From: Verrucomicrobiia bacterium
Lineage (GTDB): Bacteria > Verrucomicrobiota > Verrucomicrobiia > Limisphaerales > UBA1319
Direction of reading: 5' to 3'
DNA: 64,000 nucleotides
NCBI GenBank assembly: GCA_963664225.1
Contig: OY760937.1
Location: forward strand, 4,576,001 to 4,640,000
The notes below the pieces were generated by a model that saw only the letters and a list, made by a program, of their open reading frames with translations, ran no database searches and was not told the origin of the DNA. The position numbers were made by a program, and so were the translations under genes. The stretch's first letter is position 1. Each line of letters begins with the position of its first letter. Shown here piece after piece: positions 1,570-12,534 of the stretch.

Positions 1570-4356
1570 GTGAAGTTCACATCTCTTTCTTTGGCATTGG
1601 CCTGTCTGGTTTCGGTGATGGCGGGAATTGAAGCGCAAGCCGCCATCGTCGTTCAGGACCTGCGCTGCGAGTATCGCGCGAACCCGCTGGGCATTGACAA
1701 TTCCCAACCCCGCCTGGGCTGGGTTTTGGAGGCGGATCGGCGTGGGGAAAACCAGACGGCCTACCAGGTGCTGGTTGCCTCCACTGCCGCAAAGCTCGCC
1801 AGCGGCAATGCCGACCTCTGGGACAGCGGCAAGGTGGTCTCGCCGGAGTCAGTGAAGGTGGTCTATTCCGGGAAGCCGCTCAGTTCCGGGCAGTGCGTCT
1901 GGTGGAAGGTTCGGGTTTGGGGAAACGACGATCACGCGTCCCATTACAGCAAACCGGCTTCGATTGAAACCGGGTTGCTGTCGCCAATCGATTGGCACGC
2001 ACAGTGGATTCAGCGCAAATCCGCCGGTCCGTTGACCGAGGCTCAGATGTTCGCAGACCAACCCGCGCCAATTTTTCGCAAGGATTTCGTCCTCGACAAG
2101 AAAATCAAACGGGCGCGCGCCTACGCGAGCGGCCTGGGTTATTACGAGTTGCGGCTCAACGGCAATCGTGTTGGGGATCATGTGCTCGATCCTGGTTGGA
2201 CGAGTTACTCCAAACGGGTTCTCTATTCGACGTATGACGTGACAGCACAGCTAAAGCGTGGGCGTAATGCGATGGGCTTGATGCTGGGCAATGGCTGGTT
2301 TAATCCGCTGCCGTTGCGCATGTGGGGTCACATCAATCCTCGTGAGGCTTTGACCATCGGTGAACCGCGCGCCATTGTTCAGCTTGTGGTTGAATATGCG
2401 GATGGCACCAAGGCCACCATTGTCACCGATCCAAGCTGGCGCGTGAGCGATGGTCCGATCCTGCGAAACAGCGTCTATCTTGGAGAGGTCTATGACGCCC
2501 GGCGCGAGCAGCCAGGATGGGATGCGGCTGGGTTTGACGATTCACGATGGGAACCTGCTGAGCTTGCCGGTGAACCCACAGTTGGTCCTTTGCGCGCACA
2601 GGACGCACCGCCGATACGTATCACGCGCACCCTCAAGGCCGTGAAGATTGGCGAGCCGAAACCCGGAGTGTATATCTTCGATTTTGGCCAAAACTTTGCC
2701 GGATGGGCGCGATTAAGGGTGAAAGGTCCGGCTGGGACTCATGTGCGCCTCCGCTCAGGCGAACTCATTTATCCCGATGGCACCTTGAATGGAATGACCG
2801 CAGTATGCGGTCAAATCAAGGGCGGTGGCACCAATTACGTCCATGAAGGGGAAGGGGAGCCCAAGACCGCTTTTCAAGTGGATGAATATACTCTGAAGGG
2901 TAAGGGGACTGAAATATTCACGCCTCGATTCACCTTCCACGGATTTCGATATGTCGAGGTCACCGGTTTTCCGGGCAAGCCGGCATTGGATTCGCTCGAA
3001 GGTTTGCGATTGAACACGGACGTCGCCAGCGCCGGGACCTTCGAGTGTTCCAACGAGATGTTCAACCGGATTCAACGCATGGTGCTATGGACTGAATTAA
3101 GCAACCTGTTCAGCGTTCAATCGGATTGTCCCCACCGCGAGAAATATGGTTACGGAGGCGATATTGTGGCCTCCAGCGAGATGGGCATGCTGAACTTCGA
3201 CATGTCGGGCTTTTACTCGAAGGCGGCGCAGGATCTGATGGATGCGGTGCGCCCCAATGGTGGTTTTACAGAGACCTCGCCCTTTGTGGGCATCAGCGAT
3301 GAGGGATTGGGTGATAAATCAGGTCCCATTGGATGGGGCACCGCGCAACCACTCCTTCTGGCCCAGCTCCGCCAATACTATGGGGATGATCGGCCGCTGC
3401 GCGAGCAATACGAAGCCACCAAACGTTGGGTGGCGCTGCTGCGCTCCCTGGCGAAAGACGGCATACTTGACAACGGTATCAGTGATCACGAAAGCCTGGT
3501 TCCGAAACCGCGCGCGCTTTCGGGCACGGCGTTTTATTACTTTAACGTGAAGCTCTTGGCGCAACTGGCCGCCGCACTGGGAAAGGACGCCGACGCCCAG
3601 GAGGCCGCCACGCTTGCTGAAGAAATCAAAACTGCGTTCAACCAGAAATTCCTGGCAAAGGGCACGGGCCGTTATGATGCCGCCACTCAAGCTTGTCAGG
3701 CGTTTGCACTCTACCACGGTCTGGTTCCGGCCAACGAACAATCTCGCGCATTGGACGTGCTCGTCGCTGATATTGCCAGCCATGGGGATCATCTGACCAC
3801 AGGCATCTTTGGCACCAAGTATATGCTCGACGTGCTCACAGACGCGGGACGCGCAGACGTGGCGTATCGCATCGTAAATCAGACTACTTTTCCGGGCTGG
3901 GGCTACATGCTGGAACAGGGTGCCACCACGCTCTGGGAACACTGGGAATTCAGCGACAACACCTTTTCGCACAATCATCCGATGTTTGGTTCCGTGAGCG
4001 AATGGTTTTACAAGGCTCTGGCCGGAATCCTGCATGCCCCCGATGCCGTGGGTTTCGACAAGATACTGATCAAGCCGCAACCGGTGGGCGATCTAAAATG
4101 GGCGCGCGCAAGCCATGACACGGTGCGCGGCAGGGTTTCGAGCGCATGGGATAAGACGAATGGCAAATTCAAATTGAGCATTGCGATCCCAGCCAACACC
4201 CTCGCAGAGGTGCATGTGCCGGCGCGGGACGTTTCACATGTGACCGAAGGTCGCAAAGCTGCCGCCAGCGCGCGCGGGGTCAAGTTCCTGCGAATGGAAG
4301 GAAACGCCGCTGTCTTTGCCGTGGGCTCGGGTCACTACGAATTCGTGGCTGAGTGA
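1570..4356 (+). CDS. Secreted alpha-L-rhamnosidase, glycoside hydrolase family 78
   Basis: Signal peptide; LRCEYRANPLGID, GLGYYELRLNG, DFGQNFAGW, FTFHGFRYVEV, SDCPHREK, GATTLWEHW, SHNHPMFG motifs. Confidence 0.93.
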   Translation: MKFTSLSLALACLVSVMAGIEAQAAIVVQDLRCEYRANPLGIDNSQPRLGWVLEADRRGENQTAYQVLVASTAAKLASGNADLWDSGKVVSPESVKVVYSGKPLSSGQCVWWKVRVWGNDDHASHYSKPASIETGLLSPIDWHAQWIQRKSAGPLTEAQMFADQPAPIFRKDFVLDKKIKRARAYASGLGYYELRLNGNRVGDHVLDPGWTSYSKRVLYSTYDVTAQLKRGRNAMGLMLGNGWFNPLPLRMWGHINPREALTIGEPRAIVQLVVEYADGTKATIVTDPSWRVSDGPILRNSVYLGEVYDARREQPGWDAAGFDDSRWEPAELAGEPTVGPLRAQDAPPIRITRTLKAVKIGEPKPGVYIFDFGQNFAGWARLRVKGPAGTHVRLRSGELIYPDGTLNGMTAVCGQIKGGGTNYVHEGEGEPKTAFQVDEYTLKGKGTEIFTPRFTFHGFRYVEVTGFPGKPALDSLEGLRLNTDVASAGTFECSNEMFNRIQRMVLWTELSNLFSVQSDCPHREKYGYGGDIVASSEMGMLNFDMSGFYSKAAQDLMDAVRPNGGFTETSPFVGISDEGLGDKSGPIGWGTAQPLLLAQLRQYYGDDRPLREQYEATKRWVALLRSLAKDGILDNGISDHESLVPKPRALSGTAFYYFNVKLLAQLAAALGKDADAQEAATLAEEIKTAFNQKFLAKGTGRYDAATQACQAFALYHGLVPANEQSRALDVLVADIASHGDHLTTGIFGTKYMLDVLTDAGRADVAYRIVNQTTFPGWGYMLEQGATTLWEHWEFSDNTFSHNHPMFGSVSEWFYKALAGILHAPDAVGFDKILIKPQPVGDLKWARASHDTVRGRVSSAWDKTNGKFKLSIAIPANTLAEVHVPARDVSHVTEGRKAAASARGVKFLRMEGNAAVFAVGSGHYEFVAE

Positions 4357-4437
4357 GTTGCTTAACGGGACGTGTTGTGAATTCGCATGGGTGAGTTATG
4401 GTCTTGAATACATTCACGATTGTGGTAAAAATCTGCC

Positions 4438-6087
4438 ATGACAATCCCATCGACGCCAGCATCTGAGACTATCTCTGGAGACAGTGGTCAACCACAGCCG
4501 AAGACCCCTCCGGACGGGACCGCCAAACCGCTGCGCGTGGCCATTCTATATAAACGCAACACGGAGCCCGACGAATCCCTGATGCGGTGGCTGGAGGAAA
4601 ATCTGACTCGAAACGGCCAGACGGTGTTTATTGACCGTCAACTCGAAATGGGTGTGGATTGGGCCCGCGAAATCGAAAAACAAATTCGCGAGTCCGACGC
4701 CATCATTCCCTTGCTCTCTGCGGAATCGATTCGCAGTGAAATGATGGGCTTTGAGATTGAACATGCCCATGAGACCGCCCAAAGCCAATACGGCCGTCCG
4801 CGCCTCCTGCCGGTGCGGGTGGATTATACCGGTCCGCTGCCCGAACCGCTCGGCGGCATCCTGGAGCCCATACAATATTATTTATGGCAGGGAAACCAGG
4901 ACCATGAAGGCCTGCTGTCAGAATTATTCGATGCCTTGCGCCACTTGCCGTCGGCTGAACCAGTCACTTTCCCGCTTCCCGAAAAAGGTCATCGCCTGAC
5001 GCCGTTGCCCCCGCCACCGGCCAAAGCCGCCGGGTCCGAGCCGACACCCCATCTCTGGGTGACGCCCCTTGCGCTCGAATCCGTCGGCGGGGCGGTTCCC
5101 TTGGAATCGAAGTATTATGTCAAACGAGCGGTCGATACGGAAATGCAGAACGCCCTGTCCCATCGCGACAGCATCGTTTTAATCAAGGGCGCCCGCCAGA
5201 TGGGCAAGACATCGCTGCTTGCCCGGGGACTGCAATTCGCGCGCGAATCCGGCGCGAGGACGGCGTTCATCGATTGTCAGAAGCTGAGCGCCTTTAATCT
5301 GGATAATATCAATAATTTTTACATGACCCTAGCGGAATCGCTTGCGGATCAATTGGATCTGCCGGTTTTGCCGTCCGAGGCCTGGGATCCCCGGCGGGGA
5401 CCCAACATTAATTTTGAACGGTACGTTCGCCGCGAAGTGCTGGGTCGGCTGCAGGCGCCGCTGGTCTGGGGATTGGACGAAGTGGATCGGTTGTTCCCCT
5501 GTTCGTTTGGCAGCGAGGTCTTTGGCCTTTTTCGGTCCTGGCATAACGAGCGGGCTTTGGACCCGACCGGTCCGTGGGCCGGGCTGACGCTGGCGATCGC
5601 TTACGCCACCGAGGCGCACCTGTTCATCACCGACATGAATCAATCGCCGTTCAACGTGGGCACCCGCCTGGCCTTGGATGATTTTCTGCCTGTGCAAATT
5701 GACGAATTGAATCGCCGATATGGGAATCCGCTCAAGAATTCGGAGGAGTTAAACCGGTTTGCCCGCCTGGTCGGAGGCCATCCCTATCTGGTCCGCCGCG
5801 GTTTGCATGAGTTCGCCTTGAACAAAACAAGCATGGATACCTTCGAAACCATGGCTCCGCGCGACGAAGGGATTTACGGAGATCATCTGCGCCGCATTCT
5901 GGTGTTGCTGGCCAAGGACCCGGTATTGATGGAGGTCGTGCGTGGAATCCTGCACGAAAAACCGTGCCCTACGCCGGAGAGCTTCTATCGGTTGCGCAGC
6001 GCCGGTGTGGTGGCCGGCAATTCGCCTTCGGATGCGCGTCCACGCTGTCGGCTCTACGCCATGTACCTGCGGCGCCACCTCCTATGA
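4438..6087 (+). CDS. TIR domain plus AAA_35-type (STAND-like) P-loop NTPase
   Basis: TIR pattern [62 protein letters not shown]; Walker [10 protein letters not shown]; Walker B GLDEVD; QSPFNVG; GGHPYL. Confidence 0.88.
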
Positions 6088-6124
6088 TTGAGAACGGCCA
6101 GTTGCCGGTTTCTTTGCTTTGCAC

Positions 6125-8068
6125 ATGAGTGCGGACAATGCCTCGTTTTATGTCATCGGCGGCACCCTTCGTGCCGATGCTGCCTGTTACGTCGAACGCA
6201 AGGCGGATCGCGATCTGCTCGAAAGCCTGCAAGCGGGTGACTGCTGTTATGTGCTGACCTCCCGTCAAATGGGCAAGTCCTCGCTCATGGTGCGGACCGC
6301 CCAGAAACTGCGTGCCCAGGGCAGCGAGGTCGTGGTGCTGGATTTGACCGCCATCGGGCAAAATCTCACTCCCGAACAATGGTATGACGGCCTTAACGTC
6401 CGCATGGGCCGACAACTCCGCCGGGAAGAAGAGTTGGAGGATTATTGGATCAAGAACGAGCGATTGAGTCCCGTGCAACGCTTCTTCAGCGCCATCCGAG
6501 ATCTGGTTCTGCCGAAATTGACCGGCTCCCTGGTCGTGTTTGTGGATGAAATCGATATTGTTCGCTCACTTCCGTTTTCCATCGACGAATTTTTCGCGGC
6601 GATCCGCGAGTGCTACACCCGGAGGACCGTGGATCCGGAGTTCAACCGGCTTGCCTTCTGTCTGATGGGCGTGGCCACCCCTGGAGATCTTATCAAAGAC
6701 GTTCGTATGACGCCGTTCAACATTGCCCGGCGCATCGAATTACGGGATTTCACAGAGGCCGAAGCCCAGCCACTGGCCAACGCCCTGGGGCGGTCCTCCT
6801 ACCTTGCCAAACGCATGTTGCGGCGCATCCTATACTGGACCGGCGGCCATCCCTACCTGACCCAGCGGCTTTGCCAGGCTGTGGCTTCGGATACCGGATT
6901 GTGGCGCCTCAAGCATGTGGATCAGGTATGCCAGGAGATTTTCCTGTCGCATCGGGCACGGGAACGCGACGACAACCTGCTGTTTGTGCGCGAGCGCTTA
7001 TTGCGCAGCGAGGCCGATCGCATCAAACTCCTCCGTCTCTACCGCAAAGTCCATCTGACCACTCATATCACCGGCATCTTCCGTCTCGGCCTGGGTCTCG
7101 AAAAAATTGCGCCCGTGGCGGACGAGGAGACCAATCCCCTGGTAAGCGTCCTGCGACTCTCAGGCATCACCCGCGAGGAAAAGGGTTTTCTCAAAGTGCG
7201 CAACCGAATTTACTATCAAGCCTTTGATCGTAATTGGATTCTGGCGAACATGCCCGAGGTGGAAATCTGGCGGTGGGTGGTTTATTTCCTGACTGGATTA
7301 AAGCGGCTGGCCAGCTTCCTTATTTGGGTGGCGGTTATCCTCACTGTGTTCGGTTATTCCATCTCCATATTCACCAGGACCTTTCGGGACAAGTATTTTA
7401 CAGCCCTGGTCAATCAGCCCATGGCCGTCCACCGTCCGCATCCTATCGTATCTTCGCGCCCTGGGGATGCGTCGGCCCGCCTTCTGGATCTGACCCGGTT
7501 TTACAACGCCTCTCTGCGGGACAACTGGCACGATGGTTTTGCGGGATCTCTTGCCTCCCTGCCCGTCGGGCTTTCGGAGTTTAAAGGCATTCGGTTTGAC
7601 GTACGAGCCATCGTGCAACTCTCAGGTACAGAGTTAATCAGCCGTGGTTATCCGCCCAAAATCGAGGGCCTCCCAGTCCGCCAAAAATGCGCGCGCCTGC
7701 ATTTCCTGGGCGCCACTGGCTGGGATGAAGCCATGGGCCGCCAAGTCGCTAACGTGGTCGTCCATTATGCAAATGGCCAAAAACGATTCATTCCACTTCT
7801 CTACGGACAGGACCTTCTAGACTGGGCTCACGATGCCACCGATGAGCCTCAAAAAGCGGGTGCGCAGGTGGCCTGGGTCGGAGACAGCAGGGATAGTAAT
7901 ATGGATAACCCATTGCGACGCCTGTTCCTGATCACTAAAGACAATCCGCTGCCCGACGAGGAAATCGCCACACTCGATTTGGAATCCACGATGAGTCGCG
8001 CCGCCCCGTTCTTTGTCGCAATCACGGTTGATCCATCCAACAGCCCGGCAGAAGCCGAGGCGCAATAG
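6125..8068 (+). CDS. AAA_35-type NTPase with one TM helix and a C-terminal extracytoplasmic beta-sandwich-like domain
   Basis: FYVIGGTLRADAACYVERKAD; Walker A SRQMGKSS; Walker B FVDEID; TPFNIA; WTGGHPYLTQRLC; LKVRNRIY; hydrophobic LASFLIWVAVILTVFGYSISIF; about 210-aa C-terminal domain. ATG 6125 preferred over TTG 6119. Confidence 0.85.
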   Translation: MSADNASFYVIGGTLRADAACYVERKADRDLLESLQAGDCCYVLTSRQMGKSSLMVRTAQKLRAQGSEVVVLDLTAIGQNLTPEQWYDGLNVRMGRQLRREEELEDYWIKNERLSPVQRFFSAIRDLVLPKLTGSLVVFVDEIDIVRSLPFSIDEFFAAIRECYTRRTVDPEFNRLAFCLMGVATPGDLIKDVRMTPFNIARRIELRDFTEAEAQPLANALGRSSYLAKRMLRRILYWTGGHPYLTQRLCQAVASDTGLWRLKHVDQVCQEIFLSHRARERDDNLLFVRERLLRSEADRIKLLRLYRKVHLTTHITGIFRLGLGLEKIAPVADEETNPLVSVLRLSGITREEKGFLKVRNRIYYQAFDRNWILANMPEVEIWRWVVYFLTGLKRLASFLIWVAVILTVFGYSISIFTRTFRDKYFTALVNQPMAVHRPHPIVSSRPGDASARLLDLTRFYNASLRDNWHDGFAGSLASLPVGLSEFKGIRFDVRAIVQLSGTELISRGYPPKIEGLPVRQKCARLHFLGATGWDEAMGRQVANVVVHYANGQKRFIPLLYGQDLLDWAHDATDEPQKAGAQVAWVGDSRDSNMDNPLRRLFLITKDNPLPDEEIATLDLESTMSRAAPFFVAITVDPSNSPAEAEAQ

Positions 8069-8122
8069 AAAAATCCGAGAGACTAAGCGCTGGCGAGTCT
8101 TCGCTCTATTCTCCATTCTATA

Positions 8123-8150
8123 TTGACGCGGACGGCGCGGCCTTTAGCAT
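8123..8150 (+). promoter_or_regulatory. sigma70-like promoter of the GH29 gene
   Basis: TTGACG (8123-8128), 16-nt spacer, TAGCAT (8145-8150). Confidence 0.45.
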
Positions 8151-8235
8151 ATTCAAAATGACTCCCGTAAAAGCTTGTTTGGCGCCACTCGGGCCGCTCA
8201 ATAAAAGCGATTATTCATCGCATTTGCTCGTTGGC

Positions 8236-9882
8236 ATGAAATTCATTCTTTTGACTGTCCTCCTATTGGGGTGCTTGCCGTTGAACGCTGCGGAACCCAA
8301 GGACGGAACTGATTCACAGCGAATTGAATGGTGGCGGGATGCGCGGTTTGGCCTGTTCATTCATTGGGGGCCGGTCAGCCTTCAAGGGACGGAAATTGGC
8401 TGGTCAAGGGGAGGGGAACGTAGGGGCTATGGGAGCACTGGGACCGAGGTGCCGGTGGCGGTTTACGACAATCTCTACAAGAAGTTCAATCCCACGAATT
8501 ATAACGCCGAACAATGGGTGGCGTTGGCGAAAGCGGCGGGGATGAAATATGTGGTCTTTACCAGCCGGCATCATGATGGATTTAGCATGTTCGACACGAA
8601 GGCCAACGATTACAAGATTACTTCGGCAGAAAGTCCGTTCCGGCGCGATGTGGTTCGGGAATTGGCCGACGCCTGCCATAAGGCTGGCATGCCTTTCGGG
8701 CTGTATTATTCGCAGCCCAACTGGCAGCACCCGGATGCCTTCACGAGTGATCGCCATGCCCGGTACCTGGCCTATCTCAAGATCCAGTTGCGGGAGCTTC
8801 TGACGAATTATGGAAAAGTGGATATCCTCTGGTTCGATGGCCTTGGAAAAACCGCCGCTGATTATGATGCTGTGGCTTTGAATAAGATGATTCGCGAACT
8901 CCAACCCGGCATTCTCATCAATAACCGCAATGGCCTGCCGGAGGATTTCGATACTCCGGAGCAGGTGATTGGCAAGTTCCAGAATGATCGTCCGTGGGAG
9001 AGTTGCATCACGATCTGCGAGCAATGGGCGTGGAAGCCCGGCGACAACATGAAATCGCTGCAAAAGTGCCTGGAAACGTTGATTCGGTGCGCGGGCGGCG
9101 ATGGTAATCTGCTGTTCAACGTGGGGCCGATGCCCGATGGGCGCATCGAACCTCGCCAGGAGGCGCGATTGTGTGAAATGGGCGCATGGCTGGCCAAAAA
9201 TGGGCAAACCATTTACGGAACGCGCGGAGGGCCTTGGAAACCCAATGCCTCCGTAGCCAGCACGCGTCGAGGAAATACGATTTTTGTTCATATTCTCAAA
9301 TGGAACGGGGCGACGGTTACGCTGCCAAACATCCCTCGCAAAATCATGGTTGCATCCCTTATAACCGGCGGGAAAGTTGATCTGAAACAAACGGATGAGG
9401 GGATTGTTCTCTCGGTGCCAGTCGGCGATCGGCAGCCAATCGACACCCTTGTGAAACTCGAGTTGGACGGTTCGGCCATGGATCTGGCACCGGTCGGCGT
9501 GGCGTCCGGGATCAAGGCAGCCGCCTCGAATGTCTATCACCACATGGAGGATTATGATGCTGCGAAGGCGTTCGATGGAGATCCTTCCACGCGTTGGGCC
9601 ACAGATGATGGAACCCATCAGGCCTGGATATCCACGGATTTTGGAAAATTGAGAACCTTTCATCATGTGGTGATCCATGAGGATTACGAGGGGCGCGTTC
9701 GGAAATTTGACCTGCAATACAAGGATCCCAATGGAGCGAACGCGTGGCGGACCATCCTGTCGGGCACCACGCTGGGGAAAGATTACTCGAAGGAGTTTCC
9801 TCCAGTTGCAGCGCGTGAGGTGCGGCTCAACATCCTTGAGGCCACCGAGGGTCCCACCATTTCTGAGATTCGCTTCGAATAG
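8236..9882 (+). CDS. alpha-L-fucosidase (GH29) with C-terminal F5/8 type C (discoidin) domain
   Basis: WWRDARFGLFIHWG, AGMKYVVFTSRHHDGF, ILWFDG, GNLLFNVGP; C-terminal AFDGDPSTRW...ISEIRF. ATG 8236 gives a clean signal peptide; in-frame ATG 8158 is the alternative. Confidence 0.93.
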   Translation: MKFILLTVLLLGCLPLNAAEPKDGTDSQRIEWWRDARFGLFIHWGPVSLQGTEIGWSRGGERRGYGSTGTEVPVAVYDNLYKKFNPTNYNAEQWVALAKAAGMKYVVFTSRHHDGFSMFDTKANDYKITSAESPFRRDVVRELADACHKAGMPFGLYYSQPNWQHPDAFTSDRHARYLAYLKIQLRELLTNYGKVDILWFDGLGKTAADYDAVALNKMIRELQPGILINNRNGLPEDFDTPEQVIGKFQNDRPWESCITICEQWAWKPGDNMKSLQKCLETLIRCAGGDGNLLFNVGPMPDGRIEPRQEARLCEMGAWLAKNGQTIYGTRGGPWKPNASVASTRRGNTIFVHILKWNGATVTLPNIPRKIMVASLITGGKVDLKQTDEGIVLSVPVGDRQPIDTLVKLELDGSAMDLAPVGVASGIKAAASNVYHHMEDYDAAKAFDGDPSTRWATDDGTHQAWISTDFGKLRTFHHVVIHEDYEGRVRKFDLQYKDPNGANAWRTILSGTTLGKDYSKEFPPVAAREVRLNILEATEGPTISEIRFE

Positions 9883-9971: not shown

Positions 9972-11165
9972 ATGAAAATGACACCAAGCCTCACGACTAT
10001 TGTCACGATGCTGTCGCTCGCCTCGGCGAGTCAGGCGGCCAATGTCGGACCATCATTCTACGGCGATGCTCCCGACGAACATCATCCCTGGGCGATTCAT
10101 GACGGGAATCGGCCGCAGCCTCCTATAATCACCCCCGGCACGCCCAGCACGCAAGAACAGCCGGGCAAACCCCCGTCCGACGCGGTGGTCCTTTTCGATG
10201 GCAGCGATTTGTCCAAGTGGGAAGCCGATAACGACAAGAACGAAGCGACCAAGTGGGTGGTGAAGAACGGGGCCATGGAATGCGTTCCCGGCTCCGGCTA
10301 CATCCGGACAAAGGACAAGTTTGGCGATATCCAATTGCATGTGGAATGGGCGGCGCCGACCAAAGTCGAGGGCGACAGTCAGGGCCGCGGCAACAGCGGT
10401 GTGTTCCTGATGGGCATGCTGGAAATCCAGGTGCTGGATAATTACAACAATCCGACGTATTCCGATGGCACAGCGGGCGCCGCTTACGGCATCATGCCTC
10501 CGTTGGTCAATGCCTTGCGTCCCCCGGGTCAATTCCAGAACTATGACATCATTTTCCGCCGTCCCATATACAAGGATGGTGTGGCGCTGGATCCGGGATA
10601 TGTCACTGTGATCGAAAACGGCGTCGTGGTGCAGGATCACACGATGTTGGAAGGCCCCGGTGGTCACATGGCTCGCAGCAAGATCGGGCCGTTCCCTGAA
10701 GTTGGCCCACTGAAATTCCAGGATCATGGCAATCCGGTTCGCTTCCGCAATGTTTGGATTCGTCCGCTGCCCAAGCGCGCGGTCGAAGGTAATACCGACG
10801 GTTATCTCACCACCCAGGCCACAGACGCCAAGCGCAAGGAAATCGCCGCCATGATTCGTCAGGACGCGGAGAAGCTCAAGAACGACGCCAATACCGTTCC
10901 CTACATGCTGCGTCTGACAGAGTCCTGCGTTTATGAAATGGACGAAGCGACGACGGGTAAAATCAAGGACTTGGCCACCGATTATATTAATAACCTCAAG
11001 CAGTTGCCCGCTGACAAGTTGGCGACCCACAAGGACGAGGTGAGACATCTGCGTGATGTCTGCAACTACATGGTCCGGTTTAAATATGTCGAGCCTGACT
11101 CCCAGATCGAGAAGGACCTCAAACAGATCATTGCCGACAATAATTGGGACAAGAAAAACAGGTAG
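9972..11165 (+). CDS. Secreted DUF1080 (3-keto-disaccharide hydrolase-like) protein with helical C-terminal extension
   Basis: PPSDAVVLFDG, FGDIQLHVEW, QGRGNSGVF, EIQVLD, QDHGNPVRFRNVWIR. Confidence 0.88.
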   Translation: MKMTPSLTTIVTMLSLASASQAANVGPSFYGDAPDEHHPWAIHDGNRPQPPIITPGTPSTQEQPGKPPSDAVVLFDGSDLSKWEADNDKNEATKWVVKNGAMECVPGSGYIRTKDKFGDIQLHVEWAAPTKVEGDSQGRGNSGVFLMGMLEIQVLDNYNNPTYSDGTAGAAYGIMPPLVNALRPPGQFQNYDIIFRRPIYKDGVALDPGYVTVIENGVVVQDHTMLEGPGGHMARSKIGPFPEVGPLKFQDHGNPVRFRNVWIRPLPKRAVEGNTDGYLTTQATDAKRKEIAAMIRQDAEKLKNDANTVPYMLRLTESCVYEMDEATTGKIKDLATDYINNLKQLPADKLATHKDEVRHLRDVCNYMVRFKYVEPDSQIEKDLKQIIADNNWDKKNR

Positions 11166-11358: not shown

Positions 11359-12534
11359 TTACGCTTTGCCGTAGAAACTCTCAACGACTTCGCGGAAATT
11401 ATTACGTTTGATGCCGATGATGCCCATCTCGCGTCTGGCATTATCCTCGGAATCGCTGGCATGGGCCGCGTTGACCATGATGGTCTGGCCGAATTCGCGG
11501 CGGATCGAGCCGGGAGGCGCCTTCGAAGGATCTGTCGGCCCGAGGACTTCGCGAATCTTCTGCACCGCGTTTTCGCCTTCATAGACGAGGGCGATGCATT
11601 TTTCAGTGCCCGGCACATCGCGCAACTTCGGATCGCAGGTGGTGGGTGTGCAGCCAGCCATGAATTTGATGATGTTTTCGAATTGGTTGTCGCCCATGAG
11701 CGGCCCCAGGAGTCCGCCCAACTTGTCCACAACGGGTTGCGGTAAATCGAATTTGAATTCGTTTTCCAAGGCGGTCTTGGCCTTGATGGCGGCGACACCC
11801 ATTAATTTCTCCCGCAGCACTTCGCGAACAGGCCCGTAGAATTCCATGGCCTCTGTGACGCTCATGCAATGGAGCTTGATGCCCACGATGAACAGGCCGG
11901 TACGCGAAAAGAAATCGATCACGTTGCCGGGGCGGCCGGTGGAGAAACGGAAATTATCCGGCTTGATGAGAACCAGGGTGCGTTGAGGAGTGACATCGGG
12001 AGGATAAGCGATGATGTTGGTCAGTATGCCGCCGTCGGAATCCGAATAGCTGGCCCAGAGCTTGAGCTTGACGCTGGCTTCCTCCACATTCGGCGCCGCC
12101 AGAACGGCCGGCTCGAAATAGCGCACGTTATCGTGTTCGTCGAAGACCAGATCGCCGTAAGTGTCGCGAATTGTTTCGCCACCCACGCGGTTCAAGCTGA
12201 AGTTTCCGACGGCATTCCGTATTTTTTCAACGGCATCTTCCCCGCGAAACAACAGCACCATCACGCGGCGCGGCCGCTGGGTTTTGGGGTCGGGAACGAA
12301 GTATTTCGATACGTAATCCCGGATCAAGGTCTGAACCCTGCGGTCCTGGACATTGTCGGAGGAGACCAGAATGGAGCTGTATTTCTGAATCAGCTCGTTG
12401 CTGGGTGCGAACATGCGCGCGCCAGCCAGTTCCAGGCCGGTGCGGCTGATCAGCCGGGCCAGAATTCCTCCCGTGCGTGATTTGTTCAATGAATACGGAG
12501 TAATAATCGCGTATGCTAACTGTTCAGCGGACAT
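11359..12534 (-). CDS. ndk: Nucleoside-diphosphate kinase, tandem two-domain form
   Basis: C-terminal domain QRTLVLIKPD...LGPTDPSKAPPGSIRREFG...NAAHASDS with catalytic His; homologous N-terminal domain LAYAIITPY...ETIRDTYG. Confidence 0.85.
   Translation of the reverse strand: MSAEQLAYAIITPYSLNKSRTGGILARLISRTGLELAGARMFAPSNELIQKYSSILVSSDNVQDRRVQTLIRDYVSKYFVPDPKTQRPRRVMVLLFRGEDAVEKIRNAVGNFSLNRVGGETIRDTYGDLVFDEHDNVRYFEPAVLAAPNVEEASVKLKLWASYSDSDGGILTNIIAYPPDVTPQRTLVLIKPDNFRFSTGRPGNVIDFFSRTGLFIVGIKLHCMSVTEAMEFYGPVREVLREKLMGVAAIKAKTALENEFKFDLPQPVVDKLGGLLGPLMGDNQFENIIKFMAGCTPTTCDPKLRDVPGTEKCIALVYEGENAVQKIREVLGPTDPSKAPPGSIRREFGQTIMVNAAHASDSEDNARREMGIIGIKRNNFREVVESFYGKA

Follow-up and report, generated by a model that had tools for sequence, protein, structure and literature searches.

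In a Verrucomicrobiia bacterium (GenBank assembly GCA_963664225.1), two adjacent genes at positions 4438 to 8068 of the stretch presented above (contig OY760937.1, positions 4,576,001 to 4,640,000; 64,000 nucleotides, hereafter the window) are, in a reading that we hold with moderate confidence, the halves of a split, membrane-spanning switch of the STAND type (signal transduction ATPases with numerous domains), whose likeliest role would be transmembrane signal transduction. Gene 1 carries a TIR domain directly N-terminal to a nucleoside triphosphatase (NTPase) module of the AAA_35 family and would be the output protein; gene 2 combines a second AAA_35 module with a single predicted transmembrane helix and a C-terminal beta-sandwich, and would be the sensor. 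STAND proteins, including the nucleotide-binding leucine-rich repeat receptors (NLRs), are understood as single-chain cytoplasmic sensors, whereas here sensor and output are distributed over two paralogous NTPases, in a family that counts thousands of proteins from soil and freshwater bacteria.

Composition and linkage of the gene pair

A first-pass annotation of the window, made from the sequence alone, had proposed two neighbouring genes on the + strand, 37 bp apart, each with an AAA_35-type NTPase. The open reading frames, the spacer length and the Pfam matches agree with this description, and the features of the pair are as follows:

4438..6087, + strand: gene 1, putative cytoplasmic output protein with a TIR domain and an AAA_35 NTPase (549 aa; open reading frame, translation, Pfam and hydropathy)
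4540..4911, + strand: TIR domain, residues 35-158 of gene 1 (Pfam TIR_2, E 9.9e-20, 71.7 bits for a cut-off of 28)
4753..4755, + strand: codon of Glu106 (in SEMMGFEI), putative catalytic glutamate of the TIR domain (invariant in 23/23 TIR stretches of the family; TIR motif)
5089..6072, + strand: AAA_35 NTPase module of gene 1, with predicted nucleotide-binding, helical and winged-helix domains (Pfam, residues 218-545, E 3.9e-76; structural model with a predicted local distance difference test score, pLDDT, of 92.7)
5188..5211, + strand: Walker A motif of gene 1, GARQMGKT, residues 251-258 (motif and alignment of 36 sequences)
5476..5487, + strand: Walker B motif of gene 1, DEVD, residues 347-350 (motif and alignment)
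6088..6124, + strand: 37-bp intergenic spacer, from the stop of gene 1 to ATG 6125, without a terminator-like site
6125..8068, + strand: gene 2, predicted membrane sensor with an AAA_35 NTPase, one transmembrane helix and a beta-sandwich (647 aa from ATG 6125, where the homologues begin; frame open from TTG 6119)
6161..7273, + strand: NTPase module of gene 2, predicted cytoplasmic (Pfam AAA_35, residues 15-257, E 3.4e-30; conserved block up to about residue 385)
6257-6280, + strand: Walker A motif of gene 2, TSRQMGKS (motif; invariant columns in 32 sequences)
7316..7372, + strand: single transmembrane helix of gene 2, residues 400-418 counted from TTG 6119 (hydropathy 2.29)
7472..8044, + strand: C-terminal beta-sandwich of gene 2, about residues 452-642, without Pfam family, predicted extracytoplasmic (model pLDDT 89.7)

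Both AAA_35 (PF14516) matches exceed the curated cut-off of 27 bits, with 256.4 bits for gene 1 and 105.4 bits for gene 2, the latter spanning profile positions 4-245 of 331, and a second TIR profile (Pfam TIR, 29.3 bits, cut-off 21.3) also matches gene 1. The profile scan suggested by the first-pass annotation thus recovers both families, and the motifs that it had quoted are present: RQMGK, DE[VI]D, PFN and GGHPYL in both proteins (the Walker B motif of gene 2 being DEID), SEMMGFEI in gene 1. Walker A and Walker B residues are invariant in the alignments of 36 relatives of gene 1 (G251, R253, Q254, G256 and K257 for Walker A) and of 32 relatives of gene 2, where the Walker A lysine and the Walker B Asp-Glu never vary. 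As had been noticed, the two NTPases are clearly divergent: their identity is about 29% across some 243 residues, and they are therefore regarded as divergent paralogues, which are the only two AAA_35 genes in the 5.78-Mb genome. A promoter and terminator scan of positions 4200-8400 returned counts not above those of shuffled sequence.

Across phyla, the two gene types form a conserved unit, whose linkage is strong without being obligatory. Relatives of gene 2 number more than 4571 (best 8000 candidates scored), and a scan of species-representative genomes seeded with gene 2 confirmed 599 loci, 79 of which were kept; these belong to Verrucomicrobiota, Acidobacteriota, Armatimonadota and a few other labels. 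Their AAA_35 genes were assigned to types by BLAST with the two NTPases of the window, type 1 being 50-70% identical to gene 1 and type 2 50-75% identical to gene 2, for about 30% between types. The 79 loci hold 85 type-2 genes, and 78 of these are evaluable once the 7 with less than 1500 nt of upstream DNA are excluded. A type-1 gene lies directly upstream on the same strand for 55 of the 78, and 470-1119 nt upstream for three more, while another type-2 gene is found directly upstream for four (two such chains starting with a type-1 gene) and farther upstream for two. The reverse survey, seeded with the gene-1 NTPase in metagenome contigs, yielded 80 type-1 genes, including 72 with enough downstream DNA: a type-2 gene follows directly in 60/72 and after 495 nt in one. 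When only TIR-bearing type-1 genes are considered, a type-2 gene is found downstream in 40/49, and TIR-only genes are paired in 11/16. The gene order anticipated by the first-pass annotation, i.e., a TIR-AAA_35 gene followed by a second AAA_35 gene with variable C-termini, is therefore recovered by the survey in both directions.

The number of partners may vary, as several type-2 genes stand behind one type-1 gene in loci L057 and L078, and two type-1 genes stand ahead of one type-2 gene in locus L060. Among related genomes, one of the same genus and three others have the pair, and in another (G190) the two types are on different contigs. Five unpaired TIR-AAA_35 loci (L091, L094, L095, L096 and L132), whose NTPases are 61-70% identical to that of gene 1, have no type-2 gene in their 2.6-5 kb of downstream DNA; these genes either have a partner elsewhere or act alone.

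The architectures of the two types are complementary, type 1 having an output without a sensor and type 2 a sensor without an output. In a Pfam scan of 58 type-1 proteins, the NTPase is always the C-terminal end, and what precedes it is an N-terminal TIR of any kind in 21 (7 alone or doubled, 11 kinase plus TIR, 2 cyclase plus TIR, 1 cyclase plus kinase plus TIR), a Ser/Thr kinase only in 15, Trans_reg_C and/or BTAD in 19 (12 Trans_reg_C only, 3 with both, 4 BTAD only) and no assigned output in 3. In multi-domain relatives, a kinase, cyclase or SARP domain comes first and the TIR always adjoins the NTPase. Moreover, extra N-terminal domains (kinase, cyclase, SARP-type BTAD and, once, receiver plus PAS) are present in each of the best 120 of 207 longer gene-1 relatives; WD40 and TPR are absent from the domains listed for them, and therefore no unsplit form, with output and sensor on one chain, is seen among the relatives examined. 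The C-terminal regions of type-2 proteins were covered for 52 of 81 proteins, all of which start with the NTPase and lack an output domain. WD40 propellers dominate these C-termini (32/52, one also with FGE-sulfatase), followed by TPR (6/52), PEGA/CarboxypepD_reg (5/52) and a weak caspase match (1/52), and eight have no Pfam family, including Verrucomicrobial proteins with the C-terminal domain of the window. In longer Verrucomicrobial type-2 relatives, a LolA-like DUF2092 is inserted between the helix and this domain. Hence, the initial observation that one partner has an effector and the other none extends to the 58 type-1 and 52 type-2 proteins, apart from the three type-1 proteins without assigned output.

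Predicted membrane topology, folds and TIR domain

On the Kyte-Doolittle scale, gene 2 has one strongly hydrophobic stretch, the 19 residues listed above, and gene 1 has no hydrophobic helix. An equivalent helix is found within about 15 residues after the NTPase module in 78/82 type-2 proteins, and no comparable hydrophobic segment was found in 57/61 type-1 proteins. The 15 residues before the helix contain on average 5.38 Lys+Arg, versus 3.60 after it, the count being higher before the helix in 61/78 type-2 proteins and lower in 5. Because of the positive-inside rule, and because the NTPase needs cytoplasmic nucleotide, the NTPase should lie inside the cell and the C-terminal domains of type-2 proteins should face outward. 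These predictions are in line with the first-pass annotation, which had described gene 2 as an effector-less, membrane-spanning protein with one helix and a C-terminal domain, the latter now being delimited as a beta-sandwich of about 190 aa. Short proteins with this C-terminal domain have an N-terminal signal or anchor segment in 1/24 cases, and most of them look like fragments of longer proteins, so that this proportion does not bear on the location of the domain.

The model of the gene-1 NTPase (predicted template modelling score, pTM, 0.88) has archaeal ATPases as its closest solved neighbours, with PABY2304 (2qen) as the best (Z 21.9, root-mean-square deviation, rmsd, 3.8, 305 residues aligned), then SSO1545 (2fna; Z 20.8, 306 residues aligned). 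Foldseek finds the same two structures (E 4.6e-11 and 2.5e-09), at a sequence identity of 10-17%. Further neighbours are a wheat resistosome (Z 17.1), the TIR-NLR WRR4A (Z 16.9), CED-4 (Z 15.8), MalT (Z 15.1), Orc1/Cdc6 (about Z 15), Avs5 (Z 14.2) and Avs3 (Z 13.0), the alignments to 2qen, the wheat resistosome and CED-4 spanning nearly all 345 residues of the model. Given these fold neighbours, both archaeal ATPase_2 and NLR/CED-4, we call the AAA_35 module STAND-like, with the P-loop, helical and winged-helix domains as modelled for gene 1; by homology, gene 2 should have the same domain order. A sequence search of solved structures returned no match for either protein.

The C-terminal domain of gene 2 also folds confidently, and has one outstanding solved relative, AziU3/U2 (Z 15.4, rmsd 2.9, 165 residues, 16% identity), ahead of reelin repeats, Eph ligand-binding domains and carbohydrate-binding modules (Z about 7). 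AziU3/U2 is described as an aziridine synthase in the accessible part of PMC12559475; the common fold implies nothing on a common activity. According to an exhaustive profile search (E <= 0.001), the domain occurs in at least 3284 representative proteins, mostly C-terminal and sometimes in two or three copies. A scan of 47 carriers gave a Ser/Thr kinase in 16 (most of them with WD40 or TPR), a BlaR1-type Peptidase_M56 in three, thioredoxin-like domains in two and no Pfam family in 10. In view of the kinase and Peptidase_M56 carriers, the beta-sandwich is thus seen as a common end-piece of receptor-type proteins and as an unnamed module. The Protein Atlas returned only unnamed clusters and one lead, "DUF4450 (fragment)". 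In the genome of the window, a weak further copy (E 3.3e-7) lies at 5363491-5364012, inside a 1662-aa open frame. Two other loci (L021:5954-7213 and L050:7847-9136) each encode, a few kb downstream of type-2 genes of the WD40 type, a separate protein of about 420 aa with this domain at its C-terminal end.

Concerning the TIR domain, Glu106, Ser94, Ser100, Glu101 and Met102 are invariant in 23/23 TIR stretches of the family, and Glu106 fits the TIR motif S..S.[WM]...E, so that we take it to be the putative catalytic position. The first-pass annotation had likewise placed a glutamate at the usual catalytic position, an assignment with which the conservation is compatible. By sequence, the matches of the domain to solved structures are weak TIR-APAZ ones, and their alignments end before Glu106. 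The genome has a second TIR gene on the - strand (locus L004:490-1911; G000:C1:2748197-2748568), the product of which (474 aa) has an N-terminal TIR_2 domain (E 1.2e-17) and then about 330 residues without Pfam family.

A proposed split switch and its alternatives

In the mechanism that we propose, gene 2 would be the sensor, with its NTPase in the cytoplasm, its helix across the membrane and its beta-sandwich turned outward to bind a ligand, whereas gene 1 would be the output, a sensor-less paralogous NTPase with the TIR directly N-terminal. Ligand binding on the outside would alter the nucleotide state or the conformation of the gene-2 NTPase, which would then recruit or nucleate gene-1 NTPases into a mixed oligomer. 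In this oligomer, the TIR domains would be clustered and could start an NAD+-consuming catalysis through Glu106, yielding a nucleotide signal or a lowered NAD+ level in response to a cue from the envelope or the environment. Hetero-oligomerisation, the direction of regulation, the ligand, the TIR chemistry and the biological role are what we infer here. Because kinase, cyclase and OmpR/SARP outputs recur across the family, transmembrane signalling is judged the likeliest role, and general signalling more likely than dedicated phage defence. The first-pass annotation had left the choice at defence or signalling; the regulatory outputs of the relatives and the housekeeping flanks favour the signalling part and weaken the defence part.

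Gene linkage, complementarity and correlated divergence speak, indirectly, for partners acting together. Regarding the last of these, distances among type-1 NTPases correlate with those among type-2 NTPases over 53 pairs (r 0.748; none of 2000 permutations attains it), although shared ancestry inflates this correlation and only four comparisons are within genomes, these going in the same direction; the nearest neighbour agrees in 29/53 pairs.

Several other points weigh against the split switch. No upstream AAA_35 gene exists for 14/78 type-2 genes within the upstream DNA examined, no type-2 gene follows 11/72 type-1 genes, and 5/16 TIR-only genes are unpaired, several of them among the closest relatives of gene 1. 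Then, the first residue of the type-2 Walker A motif is an invariant Thr in place of Gly or Ala, in contrast to the Gly of type 1; therefore, the type-2 NTPase may be regulatory rather than catalytic, or may bind nucleotide with a different cycling. The transmembrane helix and the topology are predicted from hydropathy and charge alone. AAA_35 is above its cut-off in 2/151 sampled genomes of the phylum, a distribution that is therefore patchy and typical of accessory genes. Finally, the 2026 survey PMC13581612, in its accessible part, lists WD40 and FGE-sulfatase sensors among defence STANDs, and an invariant TIR glutamate together with such sensor types would fit a defence role as well.

Should the two proteins assemble, they would represent a new way of carrying a signal across a membrane and could serve as a simple model, in bacteria, of sensor/helper NLR pairs; the TIR would then act as one signalling output among several interchangeable ones, not as a death effector. 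A bolder version, to which we give some credence but which we advance only tentatively, would rank the family with two-component systems and receptor kinases/anti-sigma factors, as a third general way for bacteria to signal across the membrane: a single-pass receptor NTPase that senses an external ligand would template a mixed, resistosome-like ring with a paralogue of exchangeable output, that of the window being a catalytic TIR. Such a route would join Toll-like outside sensing, NLR-like NTPase assembly and TIR chemistry in one bacterial pathway. We found no published description of a paired, membrane-spanning AAA_35 system, in a literature coverage that lacks most subscription journals, and the accessible parts of PMC13581612 (with 7 supplementary files), PMC7159879 and PMC8195603 contain no description of the gene pair.

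The alternative that fares best is an anti-phage or abortive infection system, in which gene 2 would sense phage at the envelope and the TIR of gene 1 would deplete NAD+ to stop or kill the cell. The glutamate at the catalytic position, the sensor types just mentioned and the accessory-like distribution are compatible with it, as is the STAND-like fold common to Avs3 and Avs5, yet we deem it unlikely. PADLOC 2.0.0, the library of which dates from 2023, gives only weak, partial matches for gene 1 (the TIR to TIR-pAgo partner models, E 3.2e-10; 50-80 P-loop residues to PDC-S01) and none for gene 2, and neither NCBIfam nor PHROGs yields a system match; the pair thus corresponds to no named system in these collections, as the first-pass annotation had supposed. 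The flanks of the window and of seven related Verrucomicrobial loci are housekeeping or variable and contain no defence genes, one IS200 transposase being their sole mobile gene. In addition, the output is often a transcription-factor domain (19/58) or a kinase (15/58), and the TIR itself is commonly fused C-terminal to a kinase, cyclase or SARP domain. The known sensors of STAND defence systems bind phage proteins intracellularly, whereas the sensor of gene 2 is predicted outside the cytoplasm. One divergent TIR-AAA_35 and type-2 pair (L170:4473-8053), with NTPases 37% and 41% identical to those of the window, lies on a contig filed as viral and could be quoted in favour of this alternative; the viral collection contains no other confirmed locus, and no PHROG matches the flanks of this one. 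A phage origin of the system was likewise considered and rejected on this one locus, the large neighbouring ORFs (open reading frames) of which match neither PHROG nor Pfam.

The opposite sign of regulation, with gene 2 as a membrane anchor or inhibitor (in the manner of an anti-sigma factor or CED-9) that would free gene 1 upon a signal or envelope damage, strikes us as improbable. Linkage and complementarity fit it equally, the invariant Thr of the type-2 P-loop could mark a non-cycling, scaffold-like NTPase, and the existence of orphan type-1 genes implies that type 1 may be competent alone. Nevertheless, the invariant Walker A Lys and Walker B Asp-Glu of type 2 argue for a real use of nucleotide, and the type-2 arrays behind one type-1 gene (L057, L078) are better explained by several sensors feeding one output than by several inhibitors. 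As for two independent STAND-like NTPases, neighbours through an old tandem duplication and each homo-oligomeric, we regard this as very improbable: their paralogy at 29% identity, the unpaired genes of both types and the separate contigs of genome G190 are outweighed by an order, strand and close spacing kept across Verrucomicrobiota, Acidobacteriota, Armatimonadota and others despite about 30% identity, by the fact that neither protein alone combines an input with an output, and by the divergence in step of the two types.

Known systems and neighbouring genes

With STAND NTPases (Avs, bNACHT, plant TIR-NLRs, CED-4/Apaf-1), the pair would share the modelled succession of P-loop, helical and winged-helix domains; the Walker A Lys and Walker B acidic residues are present in both genes. 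Plant TIR-NLRs, like gene 1, have a TIR directly N-terminal to the NTPase, and the WD40 or TPR repeats of the window's relatives recall STAND sensors. Yet, the pair departs from the class in two ways. First, it is not one polypeptide: the usual effector-NTPase-sensor chain is replaced by a gene 1 that ends, and a gene 2 that begins, with the NTPase, and the single-chain form is also missing in the 58 type-1 proteins, the 52 type-2 proteins and the 120 longer relatives. Second, it has a membrane-spanning sensor subunit, the sensor domain of which is predicted outside. Plant paired or helper NLRs, where a sensor NLR acts through a second NLR, would work alike: two related NTPases, often from neighbouring genes, divide sensing and execution between them. 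The likeness is an analogy only, since the partners of the window have each lost one function entirely and one of them is a membrane protein.

The outputs of AfsR/SARP, MalT and the kinase- or cyclase-fused actinobacterial ATPases (Trans_reg_C, BTAD, Pkinase, Guanylate_cyc) also occur on relatives of gene 1, and MalT is a fold neighbour of its NTPase. However, AfsR/SARP and MalT-type regulators have their TPR sensor on the same cytoplasmic chain, whereas here the sensor is on a second, membrane protein; gene 1 itself has a TIR instead of Trans_reg_C/BTAD, and none of the 19/58 relatives with these domains has a TPR sensor. The archaeal PABY2304 and SSO1545, of the ATPase_2 type, are the closest solved folds over almost the whole module, but they are stand-alone, without TIR, membrane partner or pairing. 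Gene 1 resembles Thoeris in its bacterial TIR with a putative catalytic glutamate, and a TIR-made nucleotide signal is a possible output of the pair. In contrast, no ThsA-like gene is nearby in the window, no Thoeris model is among the PADLOC matches, the ThsB_TIR profile scores 17.8 bits on gene 1, below its cut-off of 21.2, and free ThsB activates, while in the window activation would come from the NTPase. Lastly, some receptor Ser/Thr kinases and BlaR1-type membrane sensors of the same bacteria end in the beta-sandwich domain of gene 2, but on the cytoplasmic side they transduce through a kinase or a protease instead of an NTPase pair.

The genes around the pair encode an outer-membrane efflux protein, a GH78 rhamnosidase, a GH29 fucosidase with an F5/8 type C domain and a 3-keto-disaccharide hydrolase, the glycan-degrading neighbours being at positions 1570-4356, 8158-9882 and 9972-11165 of the window. 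A role as regulator of a glycan operon, as these glycosidases might suggest, was dropped, because the flanks differ in all seven related loci. Farther downstream, a 391-aa ORF on the - strand (11359-12534) has three separate matches to the 135-position nucleoside diphosphate kinase profile, the best of which covers only residues 313-372; it is either an unusually long protein of this kind or an over-extended ORF.

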